This document shows, one piece after another, positions 9,977 to 39,287 of a stretch of 64,000 nt of DNA. The translations under genes and the position numbers were made by a program. The stretch is from Dictyostelium discoideum (taxonomy: Eukaryota). The notes beneath the pieces were generated by a model. It was not told the DNA's origin. It saw only the letters and a list, made by a program, of their open reading frames with translations, and made no database searches. The number at the start of each line of letters is the position of its first letter. Position 1 is the stretch's first letter. The stretch lies in NCBI GenBank assembly GCA_000004695.1, contig CM000151.3, positions 6,272,001 to 6,336,000 on the forward strand. Direction: 5' to 3'.

Positions 9977-10627
9977 TATTTTTTTTTTTATTATTTTTGT
10001 TTTTATTATTTTTATTTTTTTTGTTTTTATTATTTTTATTATTTTTTTTTTTTTGATTAATGAAAAATTTTATTTTAGATTAGTTTACTAAATTTTTTTT
10101 TTTTTTTAATAGTATTAATTAATTATAAAAAATTTGTAACAATAACAATAAAAAAATAAAATAAAAAATAATATTAAAAAATAATATTAAAAAAAAAAAA
10201 AAAATAATAAAATGGAATAAAATAAAAAAAATAAATTTAATTTTTTTTTTTTTTATTATTTATAAATAATTGTTAATTTTTTCACAATTGTTTCAAATTT
10301 CAATTAAATTAATTTTTAAAATATGAAGATAATCATACAAAATATAGTATATGTACATTTATGTATAAAAATTTTTTAAATTGTGAGGGTTATTTTTAAA
10401 TTTCCTAAAACAAAAAAAATAAAATAATTAACGAGAGTGAATGAATGTATGTGTGATTATTATTATTATTATTTTTATTATTATTATTGTTTTTTTTTTA
10501 TTCTATTATTTCTATACAATTGACTGTCTTAATTACCCACACCCCATAAAAAAAAACAAAATAATATCAAATGGTTTAAACTATTTGAATAGAAAATAAA
10601 AATAATAACAAAAATTTTAATACCATT

Positions 10628-10661
<34 letters not shown>

Positions 10662-10740
10662 AAACATTAAAATAAAATTTTAAACTTTAATGGAAATTAA
10701 ACTATAAAAAAAAATTATATTTTATTTTTCAGTTTTAAAG

Positions 10741-10870
10741 ATAGGGGGATTTTGTGTGGTGTGAATGAATTAATATGGACTAGTATGTGTGGTTGTGGGT
10801 GTTTTTTATTTTTTTTTTGTTTAAAAGTGTGTGGAGAATGTGTTTTAGAATGAGAGTTGTGTGTTTTTGT
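10741..10870. promoter_or_regulatory. G/GT-rich island (GGGGG, GTGTGG, GTGGTTGTGGGTG, GTGTGTGGAG, GTTGTGTGTT) embedded in a >2-kb A/T desert. Similar islands lie at 16040..16075 (upstream of spnA), 45237..45275 and 45776..45800
   Basis: Local G+C and GT-dinucleotide content jumps sharply against a >85% A+T background. This resembles the G/GT-rich (CA-rich on the other strand) boxes bound by G-box-binding factor in Dictyostelium developmental promoters. Confidence 0.3.
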
Positions 10871-11297
10871 ATGAACCGATTTTTATAAATATAAATATGG
10901 ACATTAGATAAAAAAAATGTAAATAAATAAGAATAACCTATCTATTTTATGTATGTATATATCTGTATGTGTTTGGGGAATTTTTTTTATTTTTTTTTAA
11001 AATAATTGAAAATAAATTATTATAATAATTTGATTATTTTTGAAATGAGATTATCTTTATAGTAGTAAAAAAAATTCTTTTTTTTTTTTTTTTTTGCTAT
11101 ACTATTACTCTTACCTCTATAATTTTTTTTTTAATTTTCAATTTCTATATTTTTTTTTTTATCCTTTTTTTTTTTTATTTTTTTAAAGATTTTTTTTTTT
11201 TCTTTTAAAAAATTATTATTATATTTATTATTATTAAATACACTTTTTTTTTTTTTTAATGTATATTACTTTATTATTATATTATTATTATTATTAA

Positions 11298-11367
<70 letters not shown>

Positions 11368-11587
11368 TACTATCTCAATTTTATAAAAACTAAAAACTAA
11401 AAAAAAAAAAAAAAATAAAAAAAAAAATAAAAAAAAAGGAAGTAACTTTAATTTTTTTTTTTTTTATTTTATTTTATTTTATTTTTTTTTTTTTTTCTTT
11501 TTATAAATTAAAAAAACTAATATTGTTTTATATATTTTTTTTTTTTTCTTGATAAAGATTTTTACTTAAAACAAATGGTGGTTGTTG

Positions 11588-11620
<33 letters not shown>

Positions 11621-12186
11621 AAAATTTTCTAAATTTATACAAACCTCCCCCTCATATATTTTTTTTTTTTTTATTTTTTTTTTTTTTTTTTTTATTTTTT
11701 TTTTTTTTTTTTTATTTATTTTATTTATTTTTTATAATAATAATAGTTAGACTTTAATTGTAGTAATCAATTATTATATATTTTTAATTTGAATTACTTG
11801 TAAATAAATTAAAAAGATTAAAAAAAAATTTAAATTCAATAACCAAATTCAATCTATTATATCTCTGAAAATCTAATAATATAAAATTAATATTATGAAA
11901 TAAATTTAATATAAAAATTCAATCAATTAATCAAATGAAATCAATGAACAAAGAAAATTTAATTCCGACTGGAAAAAAAATAAAAATAGAAAATAAAAAA
12001 AAATAAAAAAAAAAATAGAAAAAAAAAAAAAAAAAATAAAAATAAAAAAATAAAATTAAAAATAGAAATTTAAATTATTTATGGTTAATCCCTTTTTTTT
12101 CTTTTTTATTTCAAATTTATTTGTTTTATTTTATTTTATTTTATTTTATTATATTTATTTTTTTTTTATTTATTTTTTTTTTATTT

Positions 12187-15100
12187 TTAATTCCAATTCA
12201 AAATTACAACTAAAACAGTGATATTATCACCTGAACCTCTATCATAAGAATCTTGAGCTAATAATTCTGAAATTTCAGTTGCACTTTTTCCCAATTTTAT
12301 ATTTCTTTGAACAAATTGAACGGCTTCATCATATTCGACCTTATCCCAAAGACCATCACAAGCCAAAATGAAGAAATGATCACGAGCAGTGAGATCGGTT
12401 GTTGTTTGATAAGGATCAGAGACACAAAACTTCTTTTCACCCTCTTTGTACTCCTTATCACCAAACGATCTACTAACAGCCAATGAACCAAACAAACGAT
12501 TGAAAATGATCATACCACCCAAATCGGTGACTCTCTTCTTTTCTTGGTCATCACTTGCCAAATGTTTGTAGGAGAGTAAAACCGGTTCATAGGTGACGGG
12601 TCCTTTAGGATTTGCATTTGGTTGAGCACGTGCTAAAACTATCTCTGAATCGCCTACATTTGCAGTGTAGAGTTTATTTCCAACCAATAGAGCCGATACA
12701 CCTGTGCTACCACTCTTTTCACATTTTTCAATTACAATATCATCAGCTTCAGCGTATGCATCACGGAAAGCTTGTTCATAGTCACCATCTCGGAAACTTT
12801 GAGAATTGACCAAACAATTATGAACTGTTGGCTCCAAGAGTGTTGAGGTTTCAGTACCACCATGACCATCATAAACTGCATAGTATGAGATTGGTATATC
12901 CTTTGGTGGACCATTGTAGGTTACTGCCCCCATTAGATTATTCAAAATCACATGAGTATCCTCCATATTCTTTCTTCTACCTTGTAGTGAACCGAAACCA
13001 GATTCAAGTTTAATTTTACTACCAACACCACCATTACCGCAACTATCAGCACCATTCTTTTTAGATTCAGCTGCACCATCGACTTTACTTGTCTTCTTCT
13101 CCTTTGGTGGTTTTGTTGGTTTTGGTTCTTTTGGTTCTTTTGGTTCTTTTGATTCTTTTGGTTCTTTAATTGGTTTTGGTTCTTTTGGTGGTTTTGATTC
13201 CTTTACAGGTTTTTCTTTTGGTTCTTTTATTGGTTTTGGTTCTTTTGGTGGTTTTGGTTCTTTTGGTGGTTTTGGTTCTTTTGGTGGTTTTGGTTCTTTA
13301 GGTGGTTTTACAGGTTTTGGTTCTTTTGGTGGTTTTCCTTTTCCAATTACTACCGTTGCATTATTGTTATTATTATTAGTAGAGTCTGTTGTTGTTGCTG
13401 TGGTAGTGGTTGTTGTTGTTGTAGTAGTAGTAGTTGGTAATAATGTCATTGAAGAAGTTGGTGATGATTCATTACTATAACTACTATCATTATCCATTGC
13501 ACTTGCAATTGAATTACTTATACTACCAGTTGTTGATATAACTGAACTTGGGAATGTTGATGATCCATATGTTGTTGTATTATTGTTGTTATTATTATTA
13601 TTATTTACATTTTTTAATCGAGTATTATCATTATCACTACTATATAATCCAGGTATTGAAACTGAAGTATTTGGTAAACGACTATTCCTAGATGAATTTG
13701 AACCAATTGATGAAACTGGTGATGAATTTGATTGATTATAAGGTGTTGTAAAACCTCTTTTCTCTGCATCAATTTTTAAACTATCAAAAATACCTTCAAA
13801 CTCTTCTCTAACATTATTTTTATCTAATAAATTTACAATATGACTTTTATATGGTTTATCTTTATTTTGTAACTTTTTTTTTTTAAAAAAATAAAATAAA
13901 AAATTTAAATTAAAATAAATTAATATTGATTATTTTAATAATAATAATAATAAATAATGATAAAATCTAATACATACGAATTTTGTAAATTTATTTGATA
14001 TAAAAGATACAGCTTTTTCAGGATCATTACCACCTTCATATTCAGAGAAACAAGATTTTAAATCATATTGTTTAATATTTTCATAAAAGATATCACTTGT
14101 ATTAAAAATTAAATAAATTGCTAATGATTTATCAAATAATTCAGATTTTGTTAAAGTTTCAAATGAATTTAATGATTCTAATAATAAATTTCTATGAATA
14201 TGATTATTACACATTTCAACAATTGTTGGATCTGTATTTTGTGTTGCAACTAAATGATCTGAAAAATAACTAAAAATAAATATAAATATTAAATAATTAA
14301 TTATCATAATAAATTATTTTGGTTCGTTTGTTTGTTTGTTTGTTTGTTTGTTTGTTTGTTTGTTTGTTTGTTTGTTTGTTTGTTTGTTTGTTTGTTTGTT
14401 TGTTTGTTTGTTTGTTTGTTTGTTTGTTTGTTTGTTTGTTTAATATTAATTCTTTCACTTACTCTTTTAAAGCTACAACATAAAATATATAATTTGGTTT
14501 ATAATTTTGATGTAAACCAACCCAATTCTTTGGTGAAGATTGTTTACCTGAACATCCAAATAAATCCACTTTAAATCTTTTATGAATGATTGCTGATGAT
14601 TGAATAGTATCCTTTTGATCATATGCACTAATAATATCCATCTCTGTGGGTGTATAACTTGGATCAAATACTTTAAACATTCTATCCATATAACTATAGA
14701 GTTTTAAATACTAAATTAGTATATGTAAATAAAGAATTAAATAATAATAATAATAATAATAATAATAGTAATAATGTATTTTACTTACTATTTTGGTCTA
14801 CCAGGAGTTCTAATTTCTGAACAAATTTTTGAATGATTATAAACTGATTGAATTACTTTATCTTCCCAAATACATTTACAATCCCAACCTAATTTTAGGG
14901 GGAATCTTGGTAATCTATTTCTAGCCAATTCAACTGGTTGACTTTGTATTCTTTTAACTCGAGCTAAATTATCAGGTGATAAGGTTATATTTAATCTTTC
15001 ACTATTCTCAATGAAACGAATTAACGTTGCCAATGTATTACCATAAATCAAACGTTGATAATGCTTTGCATCGGTTGGATCTGTAACGCCATATATAAAT

Positions 15101-20324: not shown

Positions 20325-20641
20325 ATGCAAAATATTGAAGAATTAGTTCAACAATTATTAATTGGCGATGAAAATGTTGGGTTTATTAATGTTCCATCAA
20401 AATTTGAGAGCGATCAACAACAACAACCACAACCAACATCCACAAATAAAAAAAATACAAATGATGATAAGAATAAAATCAATACAGTAAAGATACCAAT
20501 TTCAATGGCATTATTAGATCAATTAAGTACATTGAAATCATTATCTGCCACTTTACCATCATCACCAACAATACCACCAACCAGTACAACCCATACTGTT
20601 GGTACCTCAACTTCAACTACACCATCTAGTAATTCAACATC

Positions 20642-20686
<45 letters not shown>

Positions 20687-22669
20687 GAATAATACATCAC
20701 CACCAACATCAACTACAAATACTAGTAGTAGTAGTACAACAACCTCAAATGTAACACCATCATCAATTTTAATTGAATATGAAAATAGGATAAATGGAAT
20801 TAAACAATTAATTGAAAAGATATTGAATAAAGAGATTCCAGATTATAATTCAAAAAAGTTTGTAGTAAATTTTGATTTTTCAAGCTACCCTTCATCTGCT
20901 GATTCAATTGTGAAGGATATATTGGATAGTTATGACGGTGATTTACAAGAAGAGCAAGCAAACTACGACATGGAATTGGAGAGTAGTGGTGGCCATTTTA
21001 GTCACCACAGTAACGATATATTTGGCCCATCACCATCACCACGTGGTGCGAATTCAATCCCCAATGGTTATACAAGCTATAGATTACACTGGGCCAGTAT
21101 CATTGTTAAATTACATCAAGCAATTCTTTCAAGTTCTCTTTACCAAAACCTCTTGAAAAAGATTTACAATGTTAATGCATCTTCACAATTAACATCCTCA
21201 CAAACTTTAGTTGACTCTTTGAAAGATCCAAAAATACAATCGAAAAAAATTAATTCAAGTTTATCCTCAAGTTCATTGGTAAACAAACAATTATCATCTT
21301 CAAGCGATAACTCTTCCACTTTGGATAGTAGTGATACAACAACCACCACAACTGCCGCAAATTCAAATGCAAGTGGCTTTGCTAAATCCTCAAAAGTCAA
21401 TGACTTACAACAAGATGGTAGTGTCATTCAATCAACAAAATCAACTCCAACCACTCCACCATCTGCTTCACCTTCAACAAGTTTTCGTGGTCTTACTGGT
21501 ACTAGTGCTGATCAAGATGCTATCTTATCAATTAGTAAACAACAACCTACTTCTCCAAGTTTAGGTAAATCACTATTCTCTAGTGTAATTGGTAATAATA
21601 ATAATAACAATGTTAATAATAATAATAGTAATAATAATAATAATAGTGGTAGTTATAATAATAACAATAATAATAATAATAAAGGTAGTACAACAAGTAG
21701 TTCAGGATTTTCATTATCTGCTCTAATGTCTGGAAATAGTCGTGATGCACCACCTGCTCTTAAAGATTTAGCTGATCGTTCAACAAAATATGATCAAGGT
21801 AAAGGCATTGGTATCGATATAAATAATAACCCACTACATCAATTGCAACCACCATCAACAAATGGTGCTACTGGAGATAGATATAATCCAAATATTAATA
21901 AGTTACCATCATCCTATGAAACTGATCCAGTTTTACTTCCAGATGGTTCAACATTTGATAATACAAGACAATCATCTTCAACATCGACTTCATTATCTTC
22001 AAATCCAATATCATTTGTATCACCAACAAGCAATAATAATATTCTTCCAACAAGTCAACCTGGATCTTATAGTGGCAGTAAACCTATTCCAATGAATAAT
22101 ACCAATTCATTATTCTCACCACCATCAAATAATCCATTATCAACATCATTTGGTATGCCAGGTAGAAATAGTAATAGTAATAATAATAATAATTTCCTTT
22201 CAACTTCACCATTTGATGCACCAGGCTCTTTAACTAGTGGCGGTATGCCACCAACAAGATATCCAGATTCATTCTTTTCAACATCTGCCTCTTCAAGAGC
22301 TCCCCCAGCATGTGATGCAATTCCATCCTCAAATGTTATTCAAATTCCACAATCAAACACTAACGCTGGTAGTTCAATGTTATCAGTTTCGCCATCACCA
22401 TCATCATTAAACAACAACAATATGATTGTTGGTAGTTTATCAAGTGCAAGCAATCCATTATCATCATCTGGTGGTTTTAATAGAATGCAAGGTAGTGGTG
22501 GTTTCGAATTAAATCAATCTGGTTCAAATATTTCTCAACCAGTTATTGTGCCACCTACAACTTCTTCAATCCCAATTAATGTCCAATCATCTTCATATTC
22601 ATCAAATTCTTCTAATCCTATATTTTCTTCATCACCAAATTCTCAATTATTATTACAACAACAACAATT

Positions 22670-22710
<41 letters not shown>

Positions 22711-25700
22711 TACAACAACAATTACAACAACAATTAACTCCACAAATGCCAGCAATTGGTTCAACAATTGTACCTGCTTCAAGTTCATTTAAAGCACCAT
22801 CTCAACTTGATCTTTTATCTTCACAAACAAGTACATCATCAATTTCAACTCAATCTGGTGTTTCAAATACATCATCATCATCATCTTCTTCTTCTTCTTC
22901 CTCATCAAGTTCAACATCTACAACAAGTTCAACATTAACTTCAGGAGTTTCAAATGGTGGTGATAATTCAAATATGAATACAATTAATATTTCAAATAAA
23001 GCTCATATGGATGATACAGTTAAATCTTTATCAAAACCAATTGTTGGACTTTCAGATCATAAATTCCCAGAATGGTTAGATATTACAATTTATTGGAGAA
23101 ATGATGAAACTTCAAATGTTGTTGTTGTTGATGATAATGATATTTCTAATGGTATAAATTTAGAAATTAAACAAATATTATTAACTGAACAATCAGCTGG
23201 TAGATTAGATCATTATTTAGAATCTAAATTAGTTACATCAATTCATAATAGGTTATTGAATATTATTGAATCCAAAACCAATGAATGGGTTGAACCTATT
23301 TATAACTATTGGATAAAATCTGTGGATATCGAATATCATAATGAAATTACCAACTCTTTCCAAAACTTTATTCAAGAGTTTAACAGTCATATTTGGGATA
23401 ATAGAAAATATCAAGCATTCTTAAATAGAATTGTAAATCTTCGTAGACAATTCCCACCACCACCATCATCATCACACCAACCAGCACCAAATACACCAGC
23501 ATTGTTAACAACAACCAAAGGTATACCAATACCAATTCAAAAGAATTCCCAACAAGAAGAGATTGAAATGTCAAAGATATTCAAACAACTCGAATTGGAC
23601 ATCATTTATTTGATCTCAGTTCAACATTATTACTCTTTGAAATATATTGAAAAACTTTTAATTGGTACAATGGGTCATACTTCTGCTGATGTTAGACAAT
23701 CTTCAGTACGTTTATTAAATGTTATCTATGATTCCCATACTTGGCAATTTGAAGAACCATTAAAACCAGTAATAAGAGTTATTGGTGATGCTTTTAGAAT
23801 TGAATTAGAATTGGACCAACCATTACCTGAAAATGTATTAAAAAGAATTTATATTACAACAGTTCAACCACCAACTCAAAGATTAACAAACTTTAAATCG
23901 AGTACTATTAAAATTGGTGGTACTTATGGAAAAAATAAACAAAACTTACAATCATCATCAGCAATTTTCACAAAACATAAACCTAAAGTTGATGGTTGTA
24001 AATTATATATAGATTTACCATCATTCTATAGAGCTGGTTATTATGATTGGAGAGTTGTTGAATTAAAATCAAATGGTAAATTTGTTTCATTTGATTTTGA
24101 AACTTTTAAATTAAAATCATCAAAAGATGAAAACTATAAACAAACAGATAGTGCATCATCATCATCATCATCAATTAATGATAATCAACCAATGATATCA
24201 GATGAAAATGAAAAAATTCAAGGTAGATTTATAGTTCATCCAAAATTAAGAGAAGAAATTATGCATGAAGTTTGGGTAGATTTACAAGATTCAATTTGGG
24301 ATCCATATAGAGGTGAAATGACAAAAAAAGGTAGAATTCAAAATTTAATTGATGCTTTAGATCATTATCATCAAGAGGGTATTACTACACTTTATGTTAT
24401 GGGTTTATTAGAGAAATTACCAAGTAATCAACCATTATGTCCAACCGATAGAGATTTAGCAAATCGTTTAATTGGTGGTGATCAAATGTTCTCACAATTG
24501 GTTAATAGAGCTAAACAATTGGGTATAAAGATTGTTATCGATTCAACAACTCGTTTATCATCCAAAGCAGCCCATAGAAAATATAAAGGTGTGGTTTGTC
24601 ATACTTTGGATAATAATGGTCAACTCTCAAGATTGGAAGGTACCGATAGTTCAGAGTTCACTTGGAATGATTGTGTCTCTATGAATATGCGTAAACTTTC
24701 AGTTTGGGAAATGTTTGTTCAAGAGACTTTATTATGGGGTGATCGTGGTGTTGATGGTATTCGTATAGATAGTGCTCATACATGTCCATTGTTATTCAGA
24801 TCGAATTTGGATGAAATGTATCGTTTGGATAGTGATGATTTACCACATTATACCAATCAACAAATCTTTGAGGGTGAAATCGTTATGAAACCATCGGAAG
24901 AAGGTAAAAACTTTGGCTATTGGGGTACAACACCACCCTCACCAAAACATTCAACTCCTTTCTATCCAAATCCAATTTTCATTAAAATGACCAGAGAGGT
25001 TTGGAATCGTTTCCCACAATTTGTATTTCTTGCTGAAGTTTATTGGGATCGTGAATTACATTCAATCATTTCAGGTTTAGTGCCCTATTCTTCTGCAATT
25101 CCAAAAGCATTGGCATCGGTTTTCGATAAAGGTATCAGTAAAGATGGTATTGTTTTCGATTTAAGACAACGTCAATCAGTAAAAGCACTCTATGATTATT
25201 ATGAAATGCGTATGTCAACTTATCCACAAAATTCAATTATTCTCTATCCATCATCGACTCATCACTCTCCATATCCATTACAAATTTACAATGCTGGTGC
25301 GTGGGCTGCCGTCGATCTTATGTATTTCCTACCGGAAATTCCAATTACCTATATTGGTGAACAAAATGGTTGGTACTATCATGTTGATATTCATACAAGT
25401 CGTGTAAAAGTTGGTATGTCTGCAACACCCTATCAATTACAATATCCTCAAATTCGTGGTCATTATGCTCATCGGGTGGCACTTAGAAAATCTCATGCTT
25501 TATTACGTCGTGGTGGTATGATTCCATTGTTATGTTACCATGCAACCGGATGGCATGATCGTGTATTTGGTTTCGCACGTTTCTCTGGTAATGAAGTTGC
25601 AATCATTGCAATCAACTTTGACAATACCGACACGGAATTCTATGTCGATTGTTCACCATTGGCAAAGATTTGTTCAGATGATACAATCTATAGAATGGTG

Positions 25701-27746
25701 GATTTAATTAATCCAAGTAATCCACCACAATATTTATCATTGAACGAACTACTTCATGAAAAACATTTTGTAGTTGTACCAGGTTATTCAAGTATTTGTT
25801 GGGGTATTTATCATCAAGTTGGTTCACCTGCCGCAATGAGAGTACTCTATGAACATTCAATGACTCGTCTAAAACAATTGTTAGCAGATGATGTAGATCC
25901 ATCAAATAATTTAATTTATTCACTTATTAAAAAGAGTTTATCATCAATTGAAGAATTTGGTAAAACTCTTGAAAATATCTTATCAAATCTATCAGGTAAT
26001 ACTGAAAAAACATTTAGTAGTTTTGTTCAATCAGTACTTTACACCTTAACCAAAACCTTTGATGGTGCAACCATATTACAATATTTGGATGTTTTATCAA
26101 AGAAATCTACTCAGTCACCAAAAATTCCAAAGATTTGTCGTGAAATTTTACAACATAATACATTGGGTCCGATTGTATTTGTAACACCAGAGATTGGTCG
26201 TTTCTCAACAGTTGGTGGTGTTGGTGTAATGTTGGATGAATTAACAAGAAGTTTGCAGTTGTTAGGTTGTGAAGTTCATATTATTTCACCTTATTATAAC
26301 TATGGTAAAGGTGGTAGAACTGGTTATTTAGAAAAGGAAGAAGGTATTCGTTGGAAGAGAAATGTTTTAACCTATGTTGGACCAGATCGTGTTGAAGTTG
26401 GTGTTCATGAAGGTATGGATAAAGGTATTCATTTACACTTTTTACATCATTTCGAATACTTCCCAACACCCTATAACTCTGGTTCACCAATTCATCAACT
26501 TAAAACCATTGTATTATTTGCAAAAGCATCATTGGAATTACTTTGTCAATTAAGAATTTTACCATCAGTTGTTGTAACCAATGATTGGTTCACTGGTTTA
26601 GTTCCAGGTTATGCAAAATCGGGTGCATTTGGTACCACTTTCAATGGTACTACATTCTTCCATTTGGTACATAATCTTGAAGAAGCTTATCAAGGTAGAA
26701 TTTATCCTGATAGTGGCGACGATTTAAATTGGATTCATCATCTTCATCGTGAATTGATCGTTGATCCATATTCACATCAACTTTGTTTGAATGCATCAAG
26801 ATGTGCCTTGTTAACTTGTAATAATTGGGGTACCGTATCCAAATCTTATCTCTATGATCTATTAAGAACCAGTCATTTAGCAAATCTTTTACATAGATTC
26901 CCTGAAGCATTTGCTCATTCCAATGGTATTAGAGTAAAAGAAAGAAAACAAGCAATGAAAGCAGTTTCCACCGATCATTGGAGTGCAAAGGCAGAGCTAC
27001 AAAAGAAATATTTTGGATTGGTCGATAAATCAATACCAGTACTTAGTTTTGTTGGTAGAATTGTATTACAAAAGGGTGTTCATTTAATTTTGAATGCCGT
27101 TAGAGAATTGATTGGTCATTATCAAGGTAAAATTCAAATTTTAATTGGTGGTATGGCAAATATGAAAGATCCCTATGCAAGTAGTTGTGCTTGGTCAATG
27201 CAAGCATTGTGTAAACAATTCCCACAATCATTTTGGGCTGACCCTGATTCATTCTTTTCAGATGGTCCATTGGTTAATTTAGGCTCAGATTTTGGTTTAA
27301 TGCCTTCATTATTTGAACCAAGTGGTGTTGTACAACAAGAATACTTTGTTGCTGGTACACCAGTTATCGCTTTCAAAACTGGTGGTCTAAAAGATACAGT
27401 TTTCGAATATAATACCAACACTGAAACTGGAAATGGTTTCACTTTTGAAGCTCATAAACATACAGATTACGTTCAAGCCGTTCATCGTGCCATCAATATT
27501 TTCAATAACACTCATCATTATGAAAAAATTCGTAAATGTGCTGAAGAATCAGTTTTAGATATGTCTGTTGTTGCTGAAGCTTGGGCAAAAGAATTCTCAA
27601 GAATGAGAAGATCAATTTGGTCAACCAATCATCAATTACAAAGACTTAATGAAAAACAATCTACTGAGGTTATTGATAATAGAGATAATCATTCATCATC
27701 AACTCAACCGTTAAATTCTCAAATTAAACAACCACCACAACAATAA
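20325..27746 (+). CDS. Giant (2473 aa) protein: ~1000-aa S/T/N/Q-rich N-terminus, GH13 alpha-amylase-family domain, then GT5 starch/glycogen-synthase-type (GlgA-like) glycosyltransferase domain; single exon
   Basis: GH13 motifs: 'YHQEGITTLYVMGLLEK', 'GIKIVIDSTTR' (region I-like), 'RGVDGIRIDSAHTCP' (region II with the catalytic Asp), 'VFLAEVYWD' (region III Glu). GT5 motifs: N-terminal 'IVFVTPEIGRFSTVGGVGVMLDELTRSLQLLGCEVHIISPYY' (KTGGL-type ADP-glucose-binding loop) and C-terminal 'VIAFKTGGLKDTVFEY' (the second K-T-G-G-L signature). No hydrophobic multi-TM region at the C-terminus. Real ATG at 20325 (aaaaATGcaaaat). Confidence 0.8.
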
Positions 27747-28443
27747 AAAAAAAATAATAAAAAAATAGAATTAATAAATAATTATTAAAATCTTAATCAA
27801 AAATTTGAATTCAGGAATTGCATTTGCCTTTCAAAATAAAAAATAAAATAAAAATAAAATAAAAAAAAATTAAAAATCTGAAATTGGATTCGTTCTATTT
27901 TTAACATTTTATTTGAAAAAAAAAAAAATAAAAAAATAAAAAAAAAATAAATAAAAAAAATAAAAACAAAAAAATTAAATAATTTATCTGTCTCCTGCCA
28001 CTCATACCAAAAAAAAAAAAAAAAATGTATCTTTGCATTTTTTTATTTTTAAAACATTTTTCTCTTCAAAGATATTTTTTTTTGTGGAACAGTTTCAAAA
28101 AAAATTTTTTTTTTTTTTTTTTTTTTTAATTTTTTTTTTTGATTTTTTTTTGATTTTTTTTTTTTTTTTTGATTTTTATTCATATTATTTTTATTGTAAC
28201 TGAATCCTTAAGAATAACCTTATGATTTGAATTAATAATAACTAATAATAATTAATAAATAATTTTTTAGAGGAAAAAAAAAAAAAAAAAAAGATCAGAA
28301 AGCTTTTTTTTTATATGTATGTATTGATAGAATAAAAAAAAAAAAAACAAAATAAAATAATTACCAACCAATTAAAGTAAGTTATCTCCCCCACACGTAA
28401 AAGTAAAAATAATTATTTTTATATTTATTATTGTTATTGTTAC

Positions 28444-28528
<85 letters not shown>

Positions 28529-28909
28529 TTATTATTTATTTTTGTTCACTAATGATAATAGTAATGACCGACATAATTCAACACCTCTTAAAATCATCAA
28601 CAAACCAAATTTCTTGCACACACCCACTTTCTTTTTCAAATTTGTATTAAATCTATCTATTTTTTTATTTTTTTTATTTTTTATTTTTTTTATTTTTTTA
28701 TTTATTTTTGAAATAATTGTTAATTACGATTAAGTTGTTATTTCAATTTCATTTCTATAAATATATTTAATTTTTATTTTTTTAAATTTTTTTATTTTTT
28801 ATTTTTTTATTTATTTTTTAAAAAAAAAAAGCTTAATTATAACAAAATTTTTTATTTTTTATTTTATTTTTTTTTTTTAAAAAAATATCATTAAGTAATT
28901 TTTTTTTTT

Positions 28910-29144: not shown

Positions 29145-32100
29145 ATGTCAGATGATAAAATTCATTTAAAAGTTAGATTGGTTGATAAGAAAGTTTTTAA
29201 AAAATTTTCATTTTATCCAAAGAAAACAGTTAAAGAGGCAAGATTATTTATAGCGGCCGAATTAGAAGTTGATCCAGATCAATATGGTTTATTCCTTCCA
29301 CCAAAGGATGATCAAAATGGTGTTTGGTTTAGAGATGATTATCCATTAGATTTCTATGGATTAGAGGGAGAGAATGAAAAAGAGGCATTATTATTCACAA
29401 GTAAAGATTCAGCACAGATGGAGTTTGTAGAATTCAAGAAACGTTATAGACCCATCAAAGTTGGTAAAGGTGATAACCAATTCCGTACATTGATGGTAGA
29501 CGACACAATGAACGTATCGGACATTGTAAAGTATGTCTCTACACAGGTGCCCATCTCAAGTGCAATCGATAGGGAGCAATACGACCAAATGAACATGTAT
29601 GAGGTTGAGGAGTTGTCCAACGATATGACCGTCAGGGAGCAGGGTTACGTTGGCGAATGCACCACCAATCTTTTACGTGGCGCCAAGGGTGATCTTGGCC
29701 TTTGCGTGCAAGTTCCTTATTTCGAGGGTTTCATCATGAGAAAGAGGGGTGGTGGTTTGATCAAGGGTTTAAAGAATTGGAACAAACGTTGGTACAGTCT
29801 TAGAAAGAATAAATTACTCTACTTTAAATCAAAATCCGATTCAACAGAGATGGGTTGTATCTTGATGAAAACAGTTCAAACAGTTAGACCTTGTACAGAG
29901 GTTGCCGATATACCATCGAAATATTCAAAGATGTGCTTTGAAATCGTTACACCCGCTAGAACATTTGTAATGTTGGCAAATAATGTTTCTGATATGAAGA
30001 AATGGGTAGAGATATTGGAATCATCTCGTAGAATGTTTGCTTATGAAACTCACTTTTTCGGTGTCGCCAGTAAAAAGATATCAGAAGGTGGTGGTGGTTC
30101 ATTCATCAATGATGACGATGACGATGACGATGATGATGATGAAAATAGTGAAAGAAAAGAACAAAAGAGAAGATTACAAGAACAAAAAATGGAAAAAGAA
30201 CGTCAAGAGAAAGAACGTATTCAAGCAGAAGAGAAAGCACGTCAAGATGAAGTTGAACGTCAAGAACGTATTCGTATTGAACAAGAACAAGCAGAACGTC
30301 AATTCATTGAACAAGAGTTGGCTCGTGCCGAGGAGGAACGTAAAGAACGTATTCGTCAAGAGCAAGAGGAACAAGATCGTCAAGAACAAGAGAGAAGAAG
30401 AATCGAAGAGGAGGAAATGGTTAAATTAATGATTGAAGAAGAGGAGAGAAGAAGAAAACTCGAAGAAAAGAGACAAGAAGATCTTAGAAAGATTCAAGAG
30501 GAACAAGAATTACTCGTGAAACAACAACAAGAATTCATTGCAAAACAACAACAACTCGAACTTGAAAAACAAAGACAACTTCAAGATCAACTCGAAGAAG
30601 ATAGACGTTTGGAGGAATTAATGTTACAAATGGAAATGGATCAAGAAGAACGTATCAAAGTCAAAGAGGAACAAGAACGTCAAGAACAAGAGAAACTCGA
30701 ACTTGCAAAGAAAATGCAAGAAGAGGAAGAGAAATTAAAAGAAGAACAAGAACGTATTCGTTTAGAACAAGAAAGAGTTGAAAAAGAACGTCAAGAAGAA
30801 GAGAAACGTATGGAATTAGAACGTATCGAAGAGGAACGTCTCGAAGCAATTCGTATTGAAAAAGTACGTATTGAAAAGGAGGAACGTGAACGTAAAGAAG
30901 AGGAGGAAAGAAAAGAAAAAGAAAGAAAGAGACAAGAGGAAGAGGAAAGAATTAAAAAAGAACAAGAAGAAAAGATTAGACAATTTGAAGAGGAAAAGAA
31001 GAAACAAGAAGAACTTAGATTAATCGAACAAGAACGTATTCGTGTCGAACAAGAATTAATTAGAAAAGAAAGATTAGAATTAGAAGAAAAACAAAGAATT
31101 GAACAAATTGAAAAAGAACAACAACAACAACTCTTATTATTAGAACAATCAAAACAAAGTGATACCGATAATGAAAATGTTGATATGATGGATGAGTTTG
31201 AACGTGAGGAAGAAGAAAGAGAAAAAGAACAATTAGCTTCAAAGAGACTTCGTTCATTACAAGCTCGTTTAGAAAGTGTTTGTGCAGAGACTCCAGAATT
31301 AAAACTTTTATTATCAGAAGCAATCTTATCTTCACCAGAGAATTTATTACTCTCTTGGGCAAATTATATTGTTAGTGGTATTTCTTCACCATCACTTCAT
31401 TCTTCAAGTAGATCACATATTCAAAGTGAATTATCTTCCTCTACTAGTGGTAGTGGTTTATTAGCTAATAATGGTATATTGTTAAATGATGGTTCATCGG
31501 TTGATTCAAATGGTAGTAACAGTGGTGTTGGTAATAGTATTAATAATGCCAATGGTAGTAGTAGTAATAGTGGTGGTAGAGTATTAAAACCATCAACAGC
31601 ATCAGTAACATTAGTACCATCGACAGCATCTATTGGTTCAAATGCTGGTTGTAGTATTTCAGCAGAGTTATCAAGAGCTTCATTATTATCATCAGGTCAT
31701 CTTGTTGGTTCTCAAGCAGTTTCACTTGTACAATTAAAGAATTTGAAATCATTAGATGCAAACTTGGAAATGTATGCAAATCTTCTCTTCAAATTGGAGC
31801 CACAAGAATTTAGTCTTCAACATTATGTAACATTAACAACCAATGCCGAAAGAGCACAATATATTCATGCATGTTTAGTTAAATTGGGTGTAACCACAAT
31901 AACTGAGGAACAATTACTCTCATCGGATTCCGATCAACATTTGAATGTTTTACTCACAATCTATGAAGAGGTTGGCGGTGAACAATGGAAAGAGGAATTC
32001 CATACTCAAGTAGTTTCCAAACGTTCCTTTGCCACTAAATATATTCAACAACTTTTATCCAATTGTGTCTCTGCTGGTTTAAATATTGCCACATCACCAG

Positions 32101-33656
32101 AGGAATTATTACCAACACTCATGAGTGGTAGAGTATTATGTGAATTGATCAATAAAGTTTACCCAGGCACTATAGATGAACGTGTAATTCAAAAGACTCA
32201 ACAATTTTGTAAAAAGAATTTAATGTTGGCTTATAATGGTGCTAAGGCACTTGGTGCAACATCAGTACCAGATATCGTCTTCTTATCCGATGATAAAGAT
32301 ACCATTTCATCCACTGTATTACATAATTTAACTTGGTCAATCGTTGAAACTTGTCTTCTTCAATCAGCTGATCCAACAAAGAATCGTCATCTCTTCCATC
32401 TATTGAGAGCTGAGACCAGAACAAGTTTCATGAAGTTAGAGAAAGAAAAGATTATGTTACGTTGGTTCAATTATCATCTAAGAAAAGGTAGTAGTCGTTC
32501 CATCAATAACTTCACTGACGATCTTGAAGATTGTGAAAATTATGCCTATCTCTTTTCAATTATCGCTCCACAACATTCTTTGAAATCTGAAATCCTCAAA
32601 GAAAATGATTGGGAGAAGAGAGCAGAGATGGTACTCTCAATGGCTGCTAAAATCGGTTGTATGTCATTGTTAAGTCCACGTGATATCGTTGAAACTGAAA
32701 ATAGTCAACTCAATCAATTATTCGTCGCCGATATTATGAGAGTTGCTCACGGTTTACCAGCTTATCAATTCCGTTTAGATGTTGAACAATTGGATGATCA
32801 AGTTCAAAAATCAAAGGATCAAGGTAACAATGATGTTGAACTCCTTCAATGGGTAAATGGTTTAGCCATTGATGGTGTCGATGCTAAACATCTCTTGGAG
32901 GACTTTAAGTCGGGTTATCTCTTTTTAAAGATCTTTGAAAAAGTTACACCACCTGGTACTTTGGATGCAAAGAGATTCAAAACCAATCCAACCAGTGTTT
33001 TCAAAATGGTTGAACTATGTAATTATACAATGGAAATCTGTCATAAATTTAAATTAAATGTTGCTGGTACAGCTGGTACCGATTTGGCCAATGGTGATAT
33101 TCGTTCAAATCGTGCCATTCTCAATCAAATTCGTCGTGTTATCGTTGGTGAAAAGACTGTTGTTGATTCAGTCATTGCCAATCAATCTGCTGTCTTAAAA
33201 TGGGCAAACAACAAGATTGGTTTGGATGTAAAAGTAAAGAGTATTCAAAGTTTCAAAGATCAATTCCTTCAAGATGGTTTATTCCTCTTGGAATTATTAT
33301 CCTCTATAGAGCAAAACTCTGTAGATCGTAAAAATATCATCACTAATTGTTCCAACGAAGAACAACAAGAATCAAATTGTCGTTACTTTTTATCTTGTGC
33401 TTGGTCAACTGGTATACCTTTAAATGTAGTTTGGGAAGATGTTCAAAAAGTTAGATCAAAATCAATCAAACATATTGTTGAAACTTTACAATCTTGGGAC
33501 TTATTAAAATCTCAACATCAAAATTTAATTAATAATAATAATAATAATAACAATAATAATAGTAATAATAATAATAATAATATTAATAATAATAATAATA
33601 ATAATAGTAATAATAATAATAGTAATAATAATAATAATAATAGTAATAATATATAG
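29145..33656 (+). CDS. 1503-aa protein: two N-terminal ubiquitin-like/RA-like folds + PH domain + ~370-aa E/R/K-rich single-alpha-helix/coiled-coil + Ser-rich linker + fimbrin/plastin-like core of four calponin-homology (CH) domains; single exon
   Basis: PH domain: 'EGFIMRKRGGGLIKGLKNWNKRWYSLRKNKLLYFKSKSDSTEMGCILMKTVQTV...CFEIVTPARTFVMLANNVSDMKKWVEIL'. ER/K block ~30100..31250 ('ERQEKERIQAEEKARQDEVERQERIRIEQEQAERQ...'). CH domains match fimbrin ABD1/ABD2: 'LMSGRVLCELINKVYPGTIDERVI', 'IMLRWFNYHLRKGSSRSINNFTDDLEDCENYAYLFSIIAP' (~ALLRWANYHL..fstDikDskaY), 'LLQWVNGLAIDGVDAKHLLEDFKSGYLFLKIFEKV', 'AVLKWANNKIGLDVKVKSIQSFKDQFLQDGLFLLELLSSIEQNSVD'. Confidence 0.8.
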   Translation: MSDDKIHLKVRLVDKKVFKKFSFYPKKTVKEARLFIAAELEVDPDQYGLFLPPKDDQNGVWFRDDYPLDFYGLEGENEKEALLFTSKDSAQMEFVEFKKRYRPIKVGKGDNQFRTLMVDDTMNVSDIVKYVSTQVPISSAIDREQYDQMNMYEVEELSNDMTVREQGYVGECTTNLLRGAKGDLGLCVQVPYFEGFIMRKRGGGLIKGLKNWNKRWYSLRKNKLLYFKSKSDSTEMGCILMKTVQTVRPCTEVADIPSKYSKMCFEIVTPARTFVMLANNVSDMKKWVEILESSRRMFAYETHFFGVASKKISEGGGGSFINDDDDDDDDDDENSERKEQKRRLQEQKMEKERQEKERIQAEEKARQDEVERQERIRIEQEQAERQFIEQELARAEEERKERIRQEQEEQDRQEQERRRIEEEEMVKLMIEEEERRRKLEEKRQEDLRKIQEEQELLVKQQQEFIAKQQQLELEKQRQLQDQLEEDRRLEELMLQMEMDQEERIKVKEEQERQEQEKLELAKKMQEEEEKLKEEQERIRLEQERVEKERQEEEKRMELERIEEERLEAIRIEKVRIEKEERERKEEEERKEKERKRQEEEERIKKEQEEKIRQFEEEKKKQEELRLIEQERIRVEQELIRKERLELEEKQRIEQIEKEQQQQLLLLEQSKQSDTDNENVDMMDEFEREEEEREKEQLASKRLRSLQARLESVCAETPELKLLLSEAILSSPENLLLSWANYIVSGISSPSLHSSSRSHIQSELSSSTSGSGLLANNGILLNDGSSVDSNGSNSGVGNSINNANGSSSNSGGRVLKPSTASVTLVPSTASIGSNAGCSISAELSRASLLSSGHLVGSQAVSLVQLKNLKSLDANLEMYANLLFKLEPQEFSLQHYVTLTTNAERAQYIHACLVKLGVTTITEEQLLSSDSDQHLNVLLTIYEEVGGEQWKEEFHTQVVSKRSFATKYIQQLLSNCVSAGLNIATSPEELLPTLMSGRVLCELINKVYPGTIDERVIQKTQQFCKKNLMLAYNGAKALGATSVPDIVFLSDDKDTISSTVLHNLTWSIVETCLLQSADPTKNRHLFHLLRAETRTSFMKLEKEKIMLRWFNYHLRKGSSRSINNFTDDLEDCENYAYLFSIIAPQHSLKSEILKENDWEKRAEMVLSMAAKIGCMSLLSPRDIVETENSQLNQLFVADIMRVAHGLPAYQFRLDVEQLDDQVQKSKDQGNNDVELLQWVNGLAIDGVDAKHLLEDFKSGYLFLKIFEKVTPPGTLDAKRFKTNPTSVFKMVELCNYTMEICHKFKLNVAGTAGTDLANGDIRSNRAILNQIRRVIVGEKTVVDSVIANQSAVLKWANNKIGLDVKVKSIQSFKDQFLQDGLFLLELLSSIEQNSVDRKNIITNCSNEEQQESNCRYFLSCAWSTGIPLNVVWEDVQKVRSKSIKHIVETLQSWDLLKSQHQNLINNNNNNNNNNSNNNNNNINNNNNNNSNNNNSNNNNNNSNNI

Positions 33657-35784: not shown

Positions 35785-38700
35785 TTAATCAAATAAATTT
35801 TCCACATTTTTAGCTTTTGGTTTTGATTTCGAAGGAGTTGCTTTTGTTGGAGTTGCTTTTGTAGTTGTGTTGGTATCATCATCGAATAAATTATCAACGG
35901 CTTTAGTTGATTTTGCTTTAGTAGTAGTTGTTGTAGTTGTTGTTGTTGTTGATTTTGAGGTTGTACTAGTAATATCATCGAAAATATCATCAGAAATAAC
36001 TGGTTTAGTAGTTGATGATGCTTTTTTGGCTGCAGCACTTTTAACTGAAGCTTTTGGTCTTGAAATAATATCTGGGATATCATCAAAGAATGAATCTGTT
36101 TCAGATTTAGTTTCAACTGCTTTGGTTGATTTCTTGGTTGTTGTAGTTTTTGGTGTTTCTTTTGGTTGTTCTTTTTCTTTTGTTTGTTCTTTTTCTTTTG
36201 GTGTTTCTTTTGGTGTTTCTTTTGGTGTTTCTGGTTCAGATTTTTTAGGAGCAGAGGAAAGAGCAGCTTTGGTTTCAGAAGCAGTTGGTTTAGTAGTAGT
36301 AGATGCAAAGATATCACCTAATGGGTCAATTGTAACTTTTTCTGATGTTGATTTAATAGTTGGAGATGGTGAAGATTTACCACTAGAAGTTTTTTCTGAT
36401 GGAATATCATCAAAGAATGATGTATTTGAAATAGTCTTCTTTGTTGGTTCAGAAACAACTGGTTTGGTTGTAATTGGTGAAGAGGATCTGACTTTTTCAG
36501 ATTCTGAATCGGATTTTTGAGTTGGAGTTGGAGATTCTGATCTATTTGGAGCAGAAGTACCAGATTTACGAGTTGGAGGTCTACGACCACCAGATTTTGG
36601 TCTACTTGCAGTTGCATGAGTCAATTCTTTAACTGGTTCACTTTCTTCAGAGTCATTATTATTACGAGACGAAACTGTATTTCTACGTGGTCTACCACCA
36701 GATAGGGTTGGAGAAGTGACAGATGGTGATGATCTACCAGAATCTGATAAATCAGTTGCAGATGAATCATTATCATTATTTGTACTACTATCATCTTCAT
36801 TTTCTGATTCTTCTTTCTTTTTCTTTGGCATTTTAGATCCTGGTAAAAACATATTTGGATTTAATGATAATTTATTTTGAAGTGACGAAATATTTGATGT
36901 TTTCTTTGTTGGTTCAGCTTTTTCTGATGTTGGTGATTCTGATCTATTCTTTTCTTGTTGTTGTTGTTGTAGTTGTTGTTGTGCTTCAAACATTGATCCA
37001 ATTGATTTAGTTCTATTCTTTGTATTATTACTTGTTAATGGTGATGGTACATCCTCTCCTAATGGTGATGGTGGTGGAGGTGGTTTTGCATTATTATTAT
37101 TGTTGTTATTTGTGAATGTTGGTAAACCTAATGAAAGTGGATCATCAGATTCAATATTTGCTGTTGTAGATGTAAGTGGTGGTGTAGTAGTTGTCTTTGA
37201 TTTTGGTTTTGTAATTCCTAATGGATCATCACTACCAGAGAAGAAACTATCAAAATCTGATGATTTCTTTTCTTCAACTTTTTTATTACCGCTACTAGTA
37301 TCCAAATCACCAAAAAAGTCTTTACTTGATGTTGTTGTTGTTGTTGTTGTTGTTGATTTCTTTGTTGTTGATGAGAAAATATCATCATCATTCTTTTTAT
37401 TTGATGATAATGGTGAATCTGTGTCTTCAAAATCGAAAAAGTTTGATTTAGTTGATTTTTTAACTGCTGGTTTATTTTCAGTAGCAGTTGTTGATGATGA
37501 TGTTGTTGGATTTTTTTTAATTGAGAAATCACCAAATACTGATTCTTCGTCACCACCACCGAGTGGGTTAGATTCTTTCTTGTCTGATTCAACTTTGGTT
37601 GGTTCAACTTTTGCTGGTTCAACTTTTGTTGGTTCAGCTTTGGTTGGTTCGACTTTGGTTGGTTCAACTTTAGTTGGTTCAGATTTTGCTGGTTCGTCTT
37701 TTGTTAAATCACCATCAAAGAAATTAGTTTTCTTTGGTTTTTGAGCGACTGGTTTTTTAATATCACCAAATAATGGGTCTGATTCAATGGTTGAAACTGG
37801 TGATGCTGGTGAAATAGAAGCTTCTGATGGTTTTTTGATATCAAGTCCACTAAATGGATCAATTGATGGTGTTGTTGTTGTATCTTGTTTCTTCTTTGGT
37901 TCCTCAGTGATTGGTTGTTTCTTTGTTTCTGTTGTTGTTTTACTTGAATCAAAACTAAATAAATCATCATCACCACCACTCTTTTTATTTGATGATAATG
38001 GTGAATCTGTATCTTCAAAATCGAAAAAGTTTGATTTAGTTGATTTTTTAACTGCTGGTTTTGTGGTTGTTGTTGTTGTTGCTGTTGTTGGTGCTTTTGG
38101 AATATCAAGATCATCATCAGTAGTAGTTGATTTAGTTGGTTTAGTTTCTTGTTCTTTTTTAGAATTTGCTTTTGGAATATCAAATGAATCATCATCATTA
38201 CTACCAGCAGCACCAACTCCAAATGGATCTTGAACTTTTGGTTTATTTTTATCACTAGAGATTGAATCAATTCCAAGTACATCACTATCGACATATTTCT
38301 TTGGATCATGTCTTTTAATTTTCTTTTCTGGTACATCTAATAAGCCACCTTCTGAACCAAAGATTTCAGCATCCTTCTTGGTTGCAGATGTTGATTTCTT
38401 ATCTGATGAGAAAAAGTCATCCTCTGATGCTTTTGACTCTGTCTTTGGTGCTGGTGATGGAGATGATTTACCACCAGTGCCAACTTTCTTTCCACTGAAT
38501 ATATCACCACCAGCAGCATCGAAATCAAATAATTTAACACCACCAACTGGTTTCTTTGGTGCTGGACTACTTTTACCAGTTGTTGACTCACTACCTGATG
38601 CATCTGAATCAGGTATTGGAGTTGGTGGTTTGGTAGTAGTTGCTGTTGGTGCTGCTGATGTTGTAGTTGATTTTGGTTTTGGAGTACCAAATAGATCATC

Positions 38701-39287
38701 TTCATCCATACCATCCAAAAAGCTAAGTGATGATGATTTCTTTGTTTCTTTTTTGGTTGCTGGTGTTAGATCTTCATCAGTGAATAAATCATTTAATGTT
38801 TTCTTTTGTTGTGGTTGTGAAGAGGTAGTAGTTGAATCTTTTTTAGAGGTTGGTAAAGCTGTTTCATCATCACCAAATAATGAATCATCAAATGTAACTT
38901 TTCTACTAGCACTACTTTTTGGTGCAGGTGTTTCTTCAGAATCACCGAATAAATCATCATCAAACATTGATTTCTTCTTTGGTTTTGAAGTGGTTGTAGT
39001 TGAACTACTACCACCGAATAAATCATCGTCACCTCCTTTATTCTTTGAAGATAATGTATTATTAAGTTCATCAGCGAATGGATCTTTCTTTTTAGTTGGT
39101 TCATCACCATCTGCATCTTCTTGTTGTTGTTGTTTCTTTTTACTACCACCGAATAAATCATCTTCATCATCACCACCTAAAATATCTGATAATGAAGAAG
39201 TGTATGAATTTGATGATTTTTTACTTGCGACTGGTTTATCACCGAAAATATCATCCTCATCTTCAAATAATGATTCAGACTATAGTA

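Follow-up and report, generated by a model that had tools for sequence, protein, structure and literature searches.

What does a protein do that carries an alpha-amylase-type module of family GH13 and a glycogen/starch synthase-type domain of family GT5 in one chain, and is its product a wall glucan or a storage polymer? The question is raised by a gene of Dictyostelium discoideum on the forward strand of contig CM000151.3 (assembly GCA_000004695.1), within positions 6,272,001 to 6,336,000; this whole stretch of 64,000 nucleotides is called the window below, and the gene occupies its positions 20325..27746 (+). The original prediction for this locus, made from the letters alone, had compared its domain order with that of the fungal alpha-1,3-glucan synthases Ags1 and Mok1. 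Our analysis instead leads us to propose that the encoded protein of 2473 residues probably represents, in dictyostelids, an old eukaryotic type of GT5 alpha-glucan synthase with a long architecture, which would work in the cytosol and in which a degenerate GH13 module would bind or position the glucan.

The synthase domain and its relatives

The C-terminal part of the protein, residues 1946-2440 (26160..27644, +), is a glycogen/starch synthase catalytic domain of family GT5 with the GT-B fold, as indicated by Pfam, NCBIfam and PDB matches and by residue mapping. Pfam model PF08323 (Glyco_transf_5) matched residues 1950-2189 with an E-value of 2.8e-37 and 129 bits, against a cut-off of 22.7, and PF00534 (Glycos_transf_1) matched residues 2238-2392 (E 5e-12). 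The NCBIfam GlgA model TIGR02095 was matched at E 5e-49 over 471 of its 477 profile positions, with a score below its equivalog-type cut-off, and the best PDB matches were bacterial GlgA and plant starch synthases, among them starch synthase IV and GBSS (2qzs, 6gne, 3vue; E 1e-17 to 1e-12). No GT3 glycogen synthase family was returned by the Pfam scan at E<=0.1, which gave only GT-B families of the GT5/GT4 type, so that the assignment to GT5 rather than to GT3 or GT4, as originally proposed, is borne out by these profile searches.

When aligned to E. coli GlgA, the catalytic residues of the domain are all intact, with H161, R300, K305 and E377 of the bacterial enzyme corresponding to H2116, R2245, K2250 and E2331. 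Both GT5 glycine loops that had been quoted for the protein are present, the first as STVGGVGVM (residues 1961-1969) and the second as FKTGGLKDTV (2350-2359, with TGGLKDTV at 2352-2359). The first loop does not hold the lysine of the GlgA motif KTGGL, as Lys15 of GlgA aligns to Thr1962. Since this substitution is common to every eukaryotic relative that we examined (Physarum, Paramecium, Hammondia, a red alga and a glaucophyte), we regard it as a trait of the clade and not as a defect. Across 16 homologs with the same long architecture (the long forms described below), the GT5 region showed a mean identity of 0.70 to the Dictyostelium protein.

A homology search with the GT5 domain only gave 557 matches at E<=1e-10, the best 120 of which were 43-68% identical. 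Glycogen or starch synthases named among these best 120 came from Pelomyxa, Entamoeba, Toxoplasma, Cardiosporidium, Hildenbrandia, Gloeochaete, Cyanoptyche, Monocercomonoides and Corallochytrium, and no alpha-1,3-glucan synthase was found either among the named matches of this set or among the PDB matches. A neighbour-joining tree, calculated without support values, placed the Dictyostelium protein inside a group of amoebozoan sequences, well away from E. coli GlgA. Judged from these comparisons, the GT5 domain belongs to the eukaryotic clade of GT5 storage-glucan synthases, and the storage alpha-glucan that had been suggested as a product agrees with the protist and algal storage-glucan synthases that are its nearest relatives. 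The accompanying premise, namely that eukaryotic glycogen synthases are GT3 enzymes and a GT5 enzyme would be unusual, proved too narrow, because many of the closest relatives are themselves eukaryotic GT5 glycogen/starch synthases (in Entamoeba, Pelomyxa, Toxoplasma, Monocercomonoides, red algae, glaucophytes and Corallochytrium). Members of this clade reportedly use UDP-glucose, and the Dictyostelium enzyme would be expected to share this donor and to form an alpha-1,4-linked product. The use of UDP-glucose has also been stated for Toxoplasma (bioRxiv 10.1101/401828).

The GH13-like module: fold and active site

Ahead of the GT5 domain lies a module whose parts were delimited mainly with an AlphaFold2 (AF2) model of residues 1130-1860 (predicted local distance difference test score, pLDDT, 85; predicted template-modelling score 0.85), which shows a barrel of eight strands between two beta-sandwiches, one N-terminal and one C-terminal. 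The N-terminal beta-sandwich domain, with the motif RAGYYDWR, is followed by a disordered Ser-rich loop (residues ~1267-1295), and together they span residues 1148-1295 (23766..24209, +; AF2 and Foldseek); its strands fall at model residues 19-126 (pLDDT 83-93) and the loop at 138-166 (pLDDT <50). Next come the GH13-like (beta/alpha)8 barrel with its incomplete catalytic set, residues 1296-1740 (24210..25544, +), and a GH13 C-domain beta-sandwich, residues 1741-1840 (25545..25844, +), delimited by AF2 strands at model residues 602-702 (pLDDT about 90) and by the hhalign alignment to the C-terminal region of MalZ. A conserved helical linker, residues 1841-1945 (25845..26159, +), with a helix at residues 706-725 near the end of the model, leads from this module to the GT5 domain; phmmer found the linker in 25 comparison sequences, amoebozoan or taxonomically unassigned, and did not detect it in ciliate and apicomplexan long forms.

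The Pfam alpha-amylase model PF00128 gave no match at E<=0.1, and membership in GH13 was therefore established by hhalign, PDB sequence searches and fold comparison. Weak NCBIfam and PDB matches (E 8e-8 to 6e-5) pointed to maltodextrin glucosidase, maltogenic amylases and CGTases. The family profile aligned to E. coli MalZ by hhalign with a probability of 96.7% (E 4e-10) and partially to E. coli GlgX (57%), and Foldseek gave full-length alignments to GH13 enzymes that bear an N-domain (TVAII, neopullulanase and GlgE). Both the (beta/alpha)8 barrel and the C-terminal beta-sandwich that are expected of GH13 were thus present. On the strength of the model and the profile comparisons, residues 1148-1840 have a GH13 fold that has diverged far in sequence, and the predicted order of a GH13-like part followed by GT5 is correct.

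The active site of this module was mapped where the MalZ alignment, the PDB alignment and the strand topology of the AF2 model agreed. For region I, MalZ DGVFNH corresponds to DSTTRL, in which Asp1406 is kept, Asn is replaced by Arg1410 and His by Leu1411. Region II (MalZ WRLDVVH, here IRIDSAH) retains Arg1480, the nucleophile Asp1482 and His1485, and region III, the Glu at the end of strand beta5, reads FLAEV, with the acid/base Glu1571 kept. An alternative placement of region III on EGEIV (residues 1516-1520, aligned by hhalign with MalZ GEHF) had very low confidence and was overruled by the AF2 topology; we prefer E1571 over E1518, since it is E1571 that the model shows after alpha4, where beta5 has its C-terminal end. 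For region IV, MalZ SHD corresponds to THH, in which His1646 is kept and the transition-state Asp is replaced by His1647. The GH13 catalytic triad is consequently incomplete, with Asp1482, Glu1571 and, at the third position, His1647. All three motifs in which the original prediction had sought the triad are present, namely GIRIDSAHT (1478-1486), AEVYWD (1570-1575) and YPSSTHH (1641-1647); its first two residues were placed correctly in Asp1482 and Glu1571, but the second Asp that it expected near YPSSTHH is His1647.

A census of family sequences aligned to the family profile extended these observations to the relatives. The region-I His position was never occupied by His and always by V, I or L, and the region-IV Asp was found in 9 of ~100 family sequences. 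The acid/base Glu was present in 84 of 113, and the nucleophile Asp in 73 of 115, so that ~37% have another residue in its place. Examples are a Hammondia protein (P0288, residues ~1215-1225), which reads GVRISNAQ and therefore has Ser at the nucleophile position, and the relatives P0012 and P0014, which have Glu and Ala there. The GH13-like barrel itself has a mean identity of 0.58 to the Dictyostelium protein in the 16 long-form sequences, and a fold that is kept while its catalytic positions drift is what one would expect of a GH13 domain retained in a non-catalytic role.

Might the site with Asp1482, Glu1571 and His1647 nevertheless be active, making the protein a bifunctional cytosolic enzyme that remodels the chain produced by the GT5 domain through chain transfer, branching or primer trimming? 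Active GH13 enzymes are regarded as requiring the region-IV Asp and the region-I His, both of which this protein and almost all of its relatives lack. The replacement of the nucleophile in so many members further argues against a conserved catalytic role, and the Pfam alpha-amylase model fails to recognise the domain. For these reasons we hold a bifunctional enzyme to be rather unlikely, even though the retained residues, the highly conserved barrel and the obligate, ancient fusion described below all speak for it, as does the precedent of Ags1 for a division of labour between GH13 and GT5 domains (PMC12305055).

The reading that we prefer, a degenerate module that binds glucan next to an active synthase, has several points against it. 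Five of the seven classic residues of the GH13 -1 subsite (R1480, D1482, H1485, E1571 and H1646) remain in this protein and in other amoebozoan members, and together with the conservation of the barrel they leave room for a modified catalytic activity. The 9 family sequences with a region-IV Asp include three nine-site signatures (e.g. DHIRDHEHD) that also have the nucleophile Asp and the acid/base Glu, and a few lineages, judged by these residues, may have retained an active GH13 domain. In the literature searched we found no binding or activity data for the GH13-like module of any member. Donor specificity and product linkage, moreover, are predictions from clade membership. Finally, Dictyostelium also has a GT3 glycogen synthase of the animal/fungal type, glcS, beside which the present enzyme would be a second synthase.

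Distribution of the long form across protists

An exhaustive HMMER scan with the GH13-like region (residues 1130-1860) returned 332 clusters at 50% identity (E<=1e-3). Amoebozoa, ciliates and apicomplexans together contributed at least 100 sequence clusters in which the helical domain is combined with the beta-sandwich, the GH13-like barrel, the linker and GT5, with not every module detected in every lineage. Full-length collinear homologs were present in other dictyostelids, Physarum, further amoebozoan-like protist transcriptomes, Paramecium and the apicomplexan relative Rhytidocystis. Every representative of at least 900 residues that was not cut off right after the barrel had a GT5 domain downstream, and for this reason no setting of the GH13-like module is known other than the one ahead of a GT5 synthase. 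A candidate for a standalone GH13-like protein (P0139, 713 residues) was rejected, since its sequence breaks off directly behind the barrel and appears to come from a truncated gene model. By these comparisons the fusion of the GH13-like module with GT5 is obligate and ancient, spanning Amoebozoa and Alveolata.

Gene models can hide the long form, as contig JAHLWZ010000014.1 (6218-12820) of Pelomyxa schiedti suggests. Here, a 648-residue GT5 protein follows a 963-residue gene without Pfam match on the same strand, 25 bp apart, and the DNA directly upstream of the GT5 gene matches residues 1100-1141, 1610-1678 and 1708-2005 of the Dictyostelium protein. Between them, the two genes match the helical, GH13-like and linker regions of that protein. 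The pair is probably one long-form gene that was split by the gene caller.

A Hammondia hammondi protein of 3045 residues, annotated as 'glycogen synthase, putative' (P0288 above), carries the beta-sandwich and the GH13-like barrel (BLASTP E 3e-42) as well as GT5, and it shares a 90%-identity cluster with Toxoplasma glycogen-synthase fragments. Deletion of a Toxoplasma starch synthase abolishes amylopectin, a polymer that accumulates in encysted bradyzoites (PMC8205521), which is genetic evidence that this enzyme makes a cytosolic storage glucan. The Hammondia protein and the product of the deleted gene are presumably orthologs; if this is so, the family has an experimentally supported function in storage-glucan synthesis. 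In public databases, orthologs of the Dictyostelium protein are listed, for example, as 'alpha amylase domain-containing protein' or as 'Glycosyl hydrolase family 13', so that the two-domain composition was already known at the level of annotation. In a limited literature search, which did not cover key reviews, we found no account of the GH13-like module as degenerate or as strictly fused, nor of what it does.

Gene model and membrane topology

The gene model was found to be complete. An uninterrupted open reading frame of 2473 codons runs from an ATG start to a TAA stop (20325..27746, +), as a complete single exon supported by the list of open reading frames, the translation, the N-termini of orthologs and A/T-rich flanks, and encodes the single giant polypeptide that had been described. 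The G+C content across the window is 12-34%, and because stop codons are frequent in DNA so poor in G+C, a 7.4-kb open frame at the 17-33% G+C found here cannot have arisen by chance. The start codon stands in the context AAAATG directly after pure A/T intergenic DNA and agrees with the ortholog N-termini (MENIEEL.., MNIDEL.., MQNIEDL..), while A/T-rich non-coding sequence follows the TAA and the C-termini of amoebozoan orthologs lie no more than a few tens of residues away from that of the Dictyostelium protein. Given these flanks and matching termini, no exon for a membrane domain has been missed, and an unseen downstream exon of this kind, which we considered, is ruled out by the downstream sequence and the ortholog C-termini. 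The best homologs are dictyostelid proteins with 75-83% identity across the catalytic half, in agreement with the amoebozoan origin that had been assumed. The feature is thus an ordinary, correctly delimited protein-coding gene.

A hydropathy scan of all 2473 residues found no transmembrane segment; the top 19-residue Kyte-Doolittle mean, 1.47, lies inside the GT5 fold, and the usual threshold for a transmembrane call with such windows is 1.6. There is no signal peptide either, as the protein begins with the hydrophilic sequence MQNIEELVQQLLIGDENVG and its first 50 residues contain no hydrophobic window. After GT5 the protein ends with a hydrophilic tail of 33 residues (2441-2473 and the stop codon; 27645..27746, +) that holds no further domain, as the translation, the ortholog ends and the non-coding A/T-rich DNA downstream indicate. 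It follows that the protein has neither a membrane export domain nor a transmembrane segment between its two catalytic-type parts, just as had been noticed at first sight.

These features bear directly on the possibility that the protein is an Ags1/Mok1-like alpha-1,3-glucan synthase for a wall or spore-coat glucan whose membrane parts are lacking or have been lost. Dictyostelids build polysaccharide-rich spore and stalk walls, and a GH13-family domain ahead of GT5 in one very large polypeptide is also found in Ags1/Mok1, an order that the original prediction had called a hallmark of these enzymes. The resemblance, however, is one of order only. In Ags1, a membrane protein that also has a transmembrane channel, the GH13 domain lies outside the cell and the GT5 domain in the cytoplasm, and a transglycosylase role has been proposed for its GH13 domain in a division of labour with GT5 (PMC12305055). 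The Dictyostelium protein, in contrast, has no signal peptide, no inter-domain transmembrane segment and no C-terminal multi-transmembrane channel, and its TAA lies in A/T-rich intergenic DNA at about the place where amoebozoan orthologs end. Its closest GT5 relatives are cytosolic storage synthases. Whereas the GH13 domain of Ags1 is considered catalytic and essential, the GH13-like module here would be cytosolic and its triad is incomplete. Taken together, this makes an enzyme of the Ags1 type extremely unlikely. We also entertained a broader speculation, according to which the GH13-like part is an active glucan-transferring Asp-Glu-His site in a machine that synthesises and remodels, and/or fungal Ags1 evolved out of the cytosolic fusion when segments for secretion and membrane insertion were added to it; this we judge to be distinctly unlikely.

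The N-terminal regions

Residues 1-900 (20325..23024, +) form a compositionally biased region with 44-73% S/T/N/Q/P/G, which is probably disordered and has a mean identity of only 0.20 to the Dictyostelium protein among the 16 long-form sequences. Conserved islands stand out in it, for example VKIPISMALLDQL (residues ~54-66) and HWASIIVKLHQ (residues ~255-265), of which the ortholog consensus retains 'PIS..LL..L' and '(V)NW..V.LKLHQ'; the Hammondia counterpart is 'GWMVLLLKLHQ'. These islands may be docking or regulatory motifs. The region is followed by a conserved all-alpha domain, residues ~920-1147 (23082..23765, +), which is modelled by AF2 with nine helices (pLDDT 77) and carries the motifs FPEWLD..IYW and LLIGxxGH...VRLLNVIYDxHxWQ. 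A PDB fold search with this domain gave no significant match (best E 0.49), only insignificant ARM/HEAT-like ones. By phmmer the domain was found in 25 comparison sequences, among which amoebozoan and ciliate ones and the taxonomically unassigned P0139 were identified, and it was not detected in the coccidian and Rhytidocystis proteins. The stretch of about 1000 residues of S/T/N/Q low complexity that had been described ahead of the catalytic part therefore stands for residues 1-900, albeit with conserved motifs inside, but not for residues ~920-1147, which are the conserved helical domain.

It is conceivable that the GH13-like module and these N-terminal regions act mainly as a regulatory or scaffolding platform that does not bind glucan, for example in dimerisation or in the recruitment of a glycogenin-like primer, a kinase or a phosphatase. 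The disordered, Ser/Thr-rich N-terminus with its conserved short motifs and a helical domain without known fold relative would suit such a platform. Precedents exist in 4F2hc and rBAT, two proteins with a GH13 fold that act purely as protein partners and that, like the isoamylase ISA2, were among the computed structural neighbours of the GH13-like model. The sugar-contacting residues R1480, D1482, H1485, E1571 and H1646 are retained in amoebozoan members, however, and the module is permanently fused to a glucan synthase; carbohydrate binding therefore fits better than a role independent of sugar, and we consider a platform without glucan binding to be very unlikely.

Neighbouring genes and other features of the window

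The genes around the synthase are unrelated to carbohydrate metabolism, no clustering of carbohydrate genes was seen, and the neighbours (a CH/PH protein and SMC, AAA ATPase, kinase and PP2C genes) were set aside as functional context. The first of them, an open reading frame of 1503 residues at 29145-33656 (+), combines a talin-type FERM F0 domain and a PH domain with four calponin-homology stretches and is of the actin-binding type. The others are an SMC-hinge/SMC_N fragment at 49257-52700 (-), a two-module, CDC48-like AAA ATPase at 47101-49098 (+), a PP2C phosphatase at 12187-13497 (-) and a protein kinase at 3918-5486 (-). An open reading frame of 1060 residues at 35785-38967 (-) had no Pfam match at E<=1e-5; many open reading frames overlap there on both strands, which suggests unusual composition in a repeat-like or low-complexity region. 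Downstream of the synthase gene, (ATT)n trinucleotide repeats start at ~28430-28500 and overlap a 100-residue open reading frame with a TTG start (28431-28733) that is most likely no gene. The G+C content reaches its window minimum of 0.12 at positions 10001-12000, presumably an intergenic stretch.

A proposed mechanism and its implications

We propose that the protein would act as a soluble cytosolic enzyme, whose GT-B domain would transfer glucose from a nucleotide sugar, presumably UDP-glucose given the clade to which it belongs, to the non-reducing end of an alpha-1,4-glucan of the glycogen type. Its GH13-like module would descend from an enzyme of the alpha-amylase family that lost part of its catalytic machinery, and most likely it now serves as a non-hydrolytic glucan binder or positioner, which tethers the synthase to the polymer or presents the acceptor chain, by analogy with the carbohydrate-binding modules of other starch synthases. 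Regulation or partner binding would probably fall to the N-terminal parts, namely the helical domain and the long disordered stretch.

Through this protein, a model amoeba is tied to the family to which the starch/glycogen synthase of coccidia also belongs. If the GH13-like module is a glucan-binding or regulatory handle, Dictyostelium would readily lend itself to a genetic dissection of this handle. The locus also raises the question why dictyostelids keep a GT5 synthase beside their GT3 glycogen synthase.

Comparison with known systems

Among catalytically active GH13 enzymes, those of the neopullulanase, maltogenic-amylase, MalZ and GlgE types match the Dictyostelium module best in sequence and fold; they share with it the N-terminal beta-sandwich, the barrel and the C-domain, and its region II has the same R-x-D-x-x-H spacing as that of MalZ. 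They differ from it in that the identity is 10-19% and that their Asp/Glu/Asp triad is complete and region I has its His. ISA2, 4F2hc (CD98hc) and rBAT are non-catalytic proteins with a GH13 fold and in this respect resemble the role proposed here. They show no specific sequence relationship to the module, however, and rather than being fused to a glycosyltransferase they partner separate polypeptides (ISA1 and amino-acid transporters, respectively); unlike them, the GH13-like module of the Dictyostelium protein retains the nucleophile and the acid/base residue.

With bacterial GlgA and plant starch synthases, which use ADP-glucose, the protein shares the GT-B fold family and the catalytic residues, but these enzymes are ~25% identical and have no GH13-like module, and the donor in Dictyostelium is presumed to be UDP-glucose. 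Closer are the eukaryotic GT5 synthases of Toxoplasma/Hammondia, Entamoeba, red algae and glaucophytes, whose GT5 domains are 45-65% identical to that of the Dictyostelium protein; the catalytic residues agree, and the first loop shows the variant (S/T)xGG in all of them where KTGGL stands in GlgA. Many of the listed members have 600-850 residues and no GH13-like module, although at least one of these, from Pelomyxa, is a truncated gene model. The Dictyostelium protein further differs by ~900 additional residues of low-complexity N-terminus, which are typical of Dictyostelium. The alveolate long forms differ from the Dictyostelium protein in an added C-terminal CBM48-like domain (PF16561), which it lacks. 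The coccidian, ciliate and Rhytidocystis proteins all have the beta-sandwich, the GH13-like barrel and GT5, and the ciliate form has the helical domain as well.

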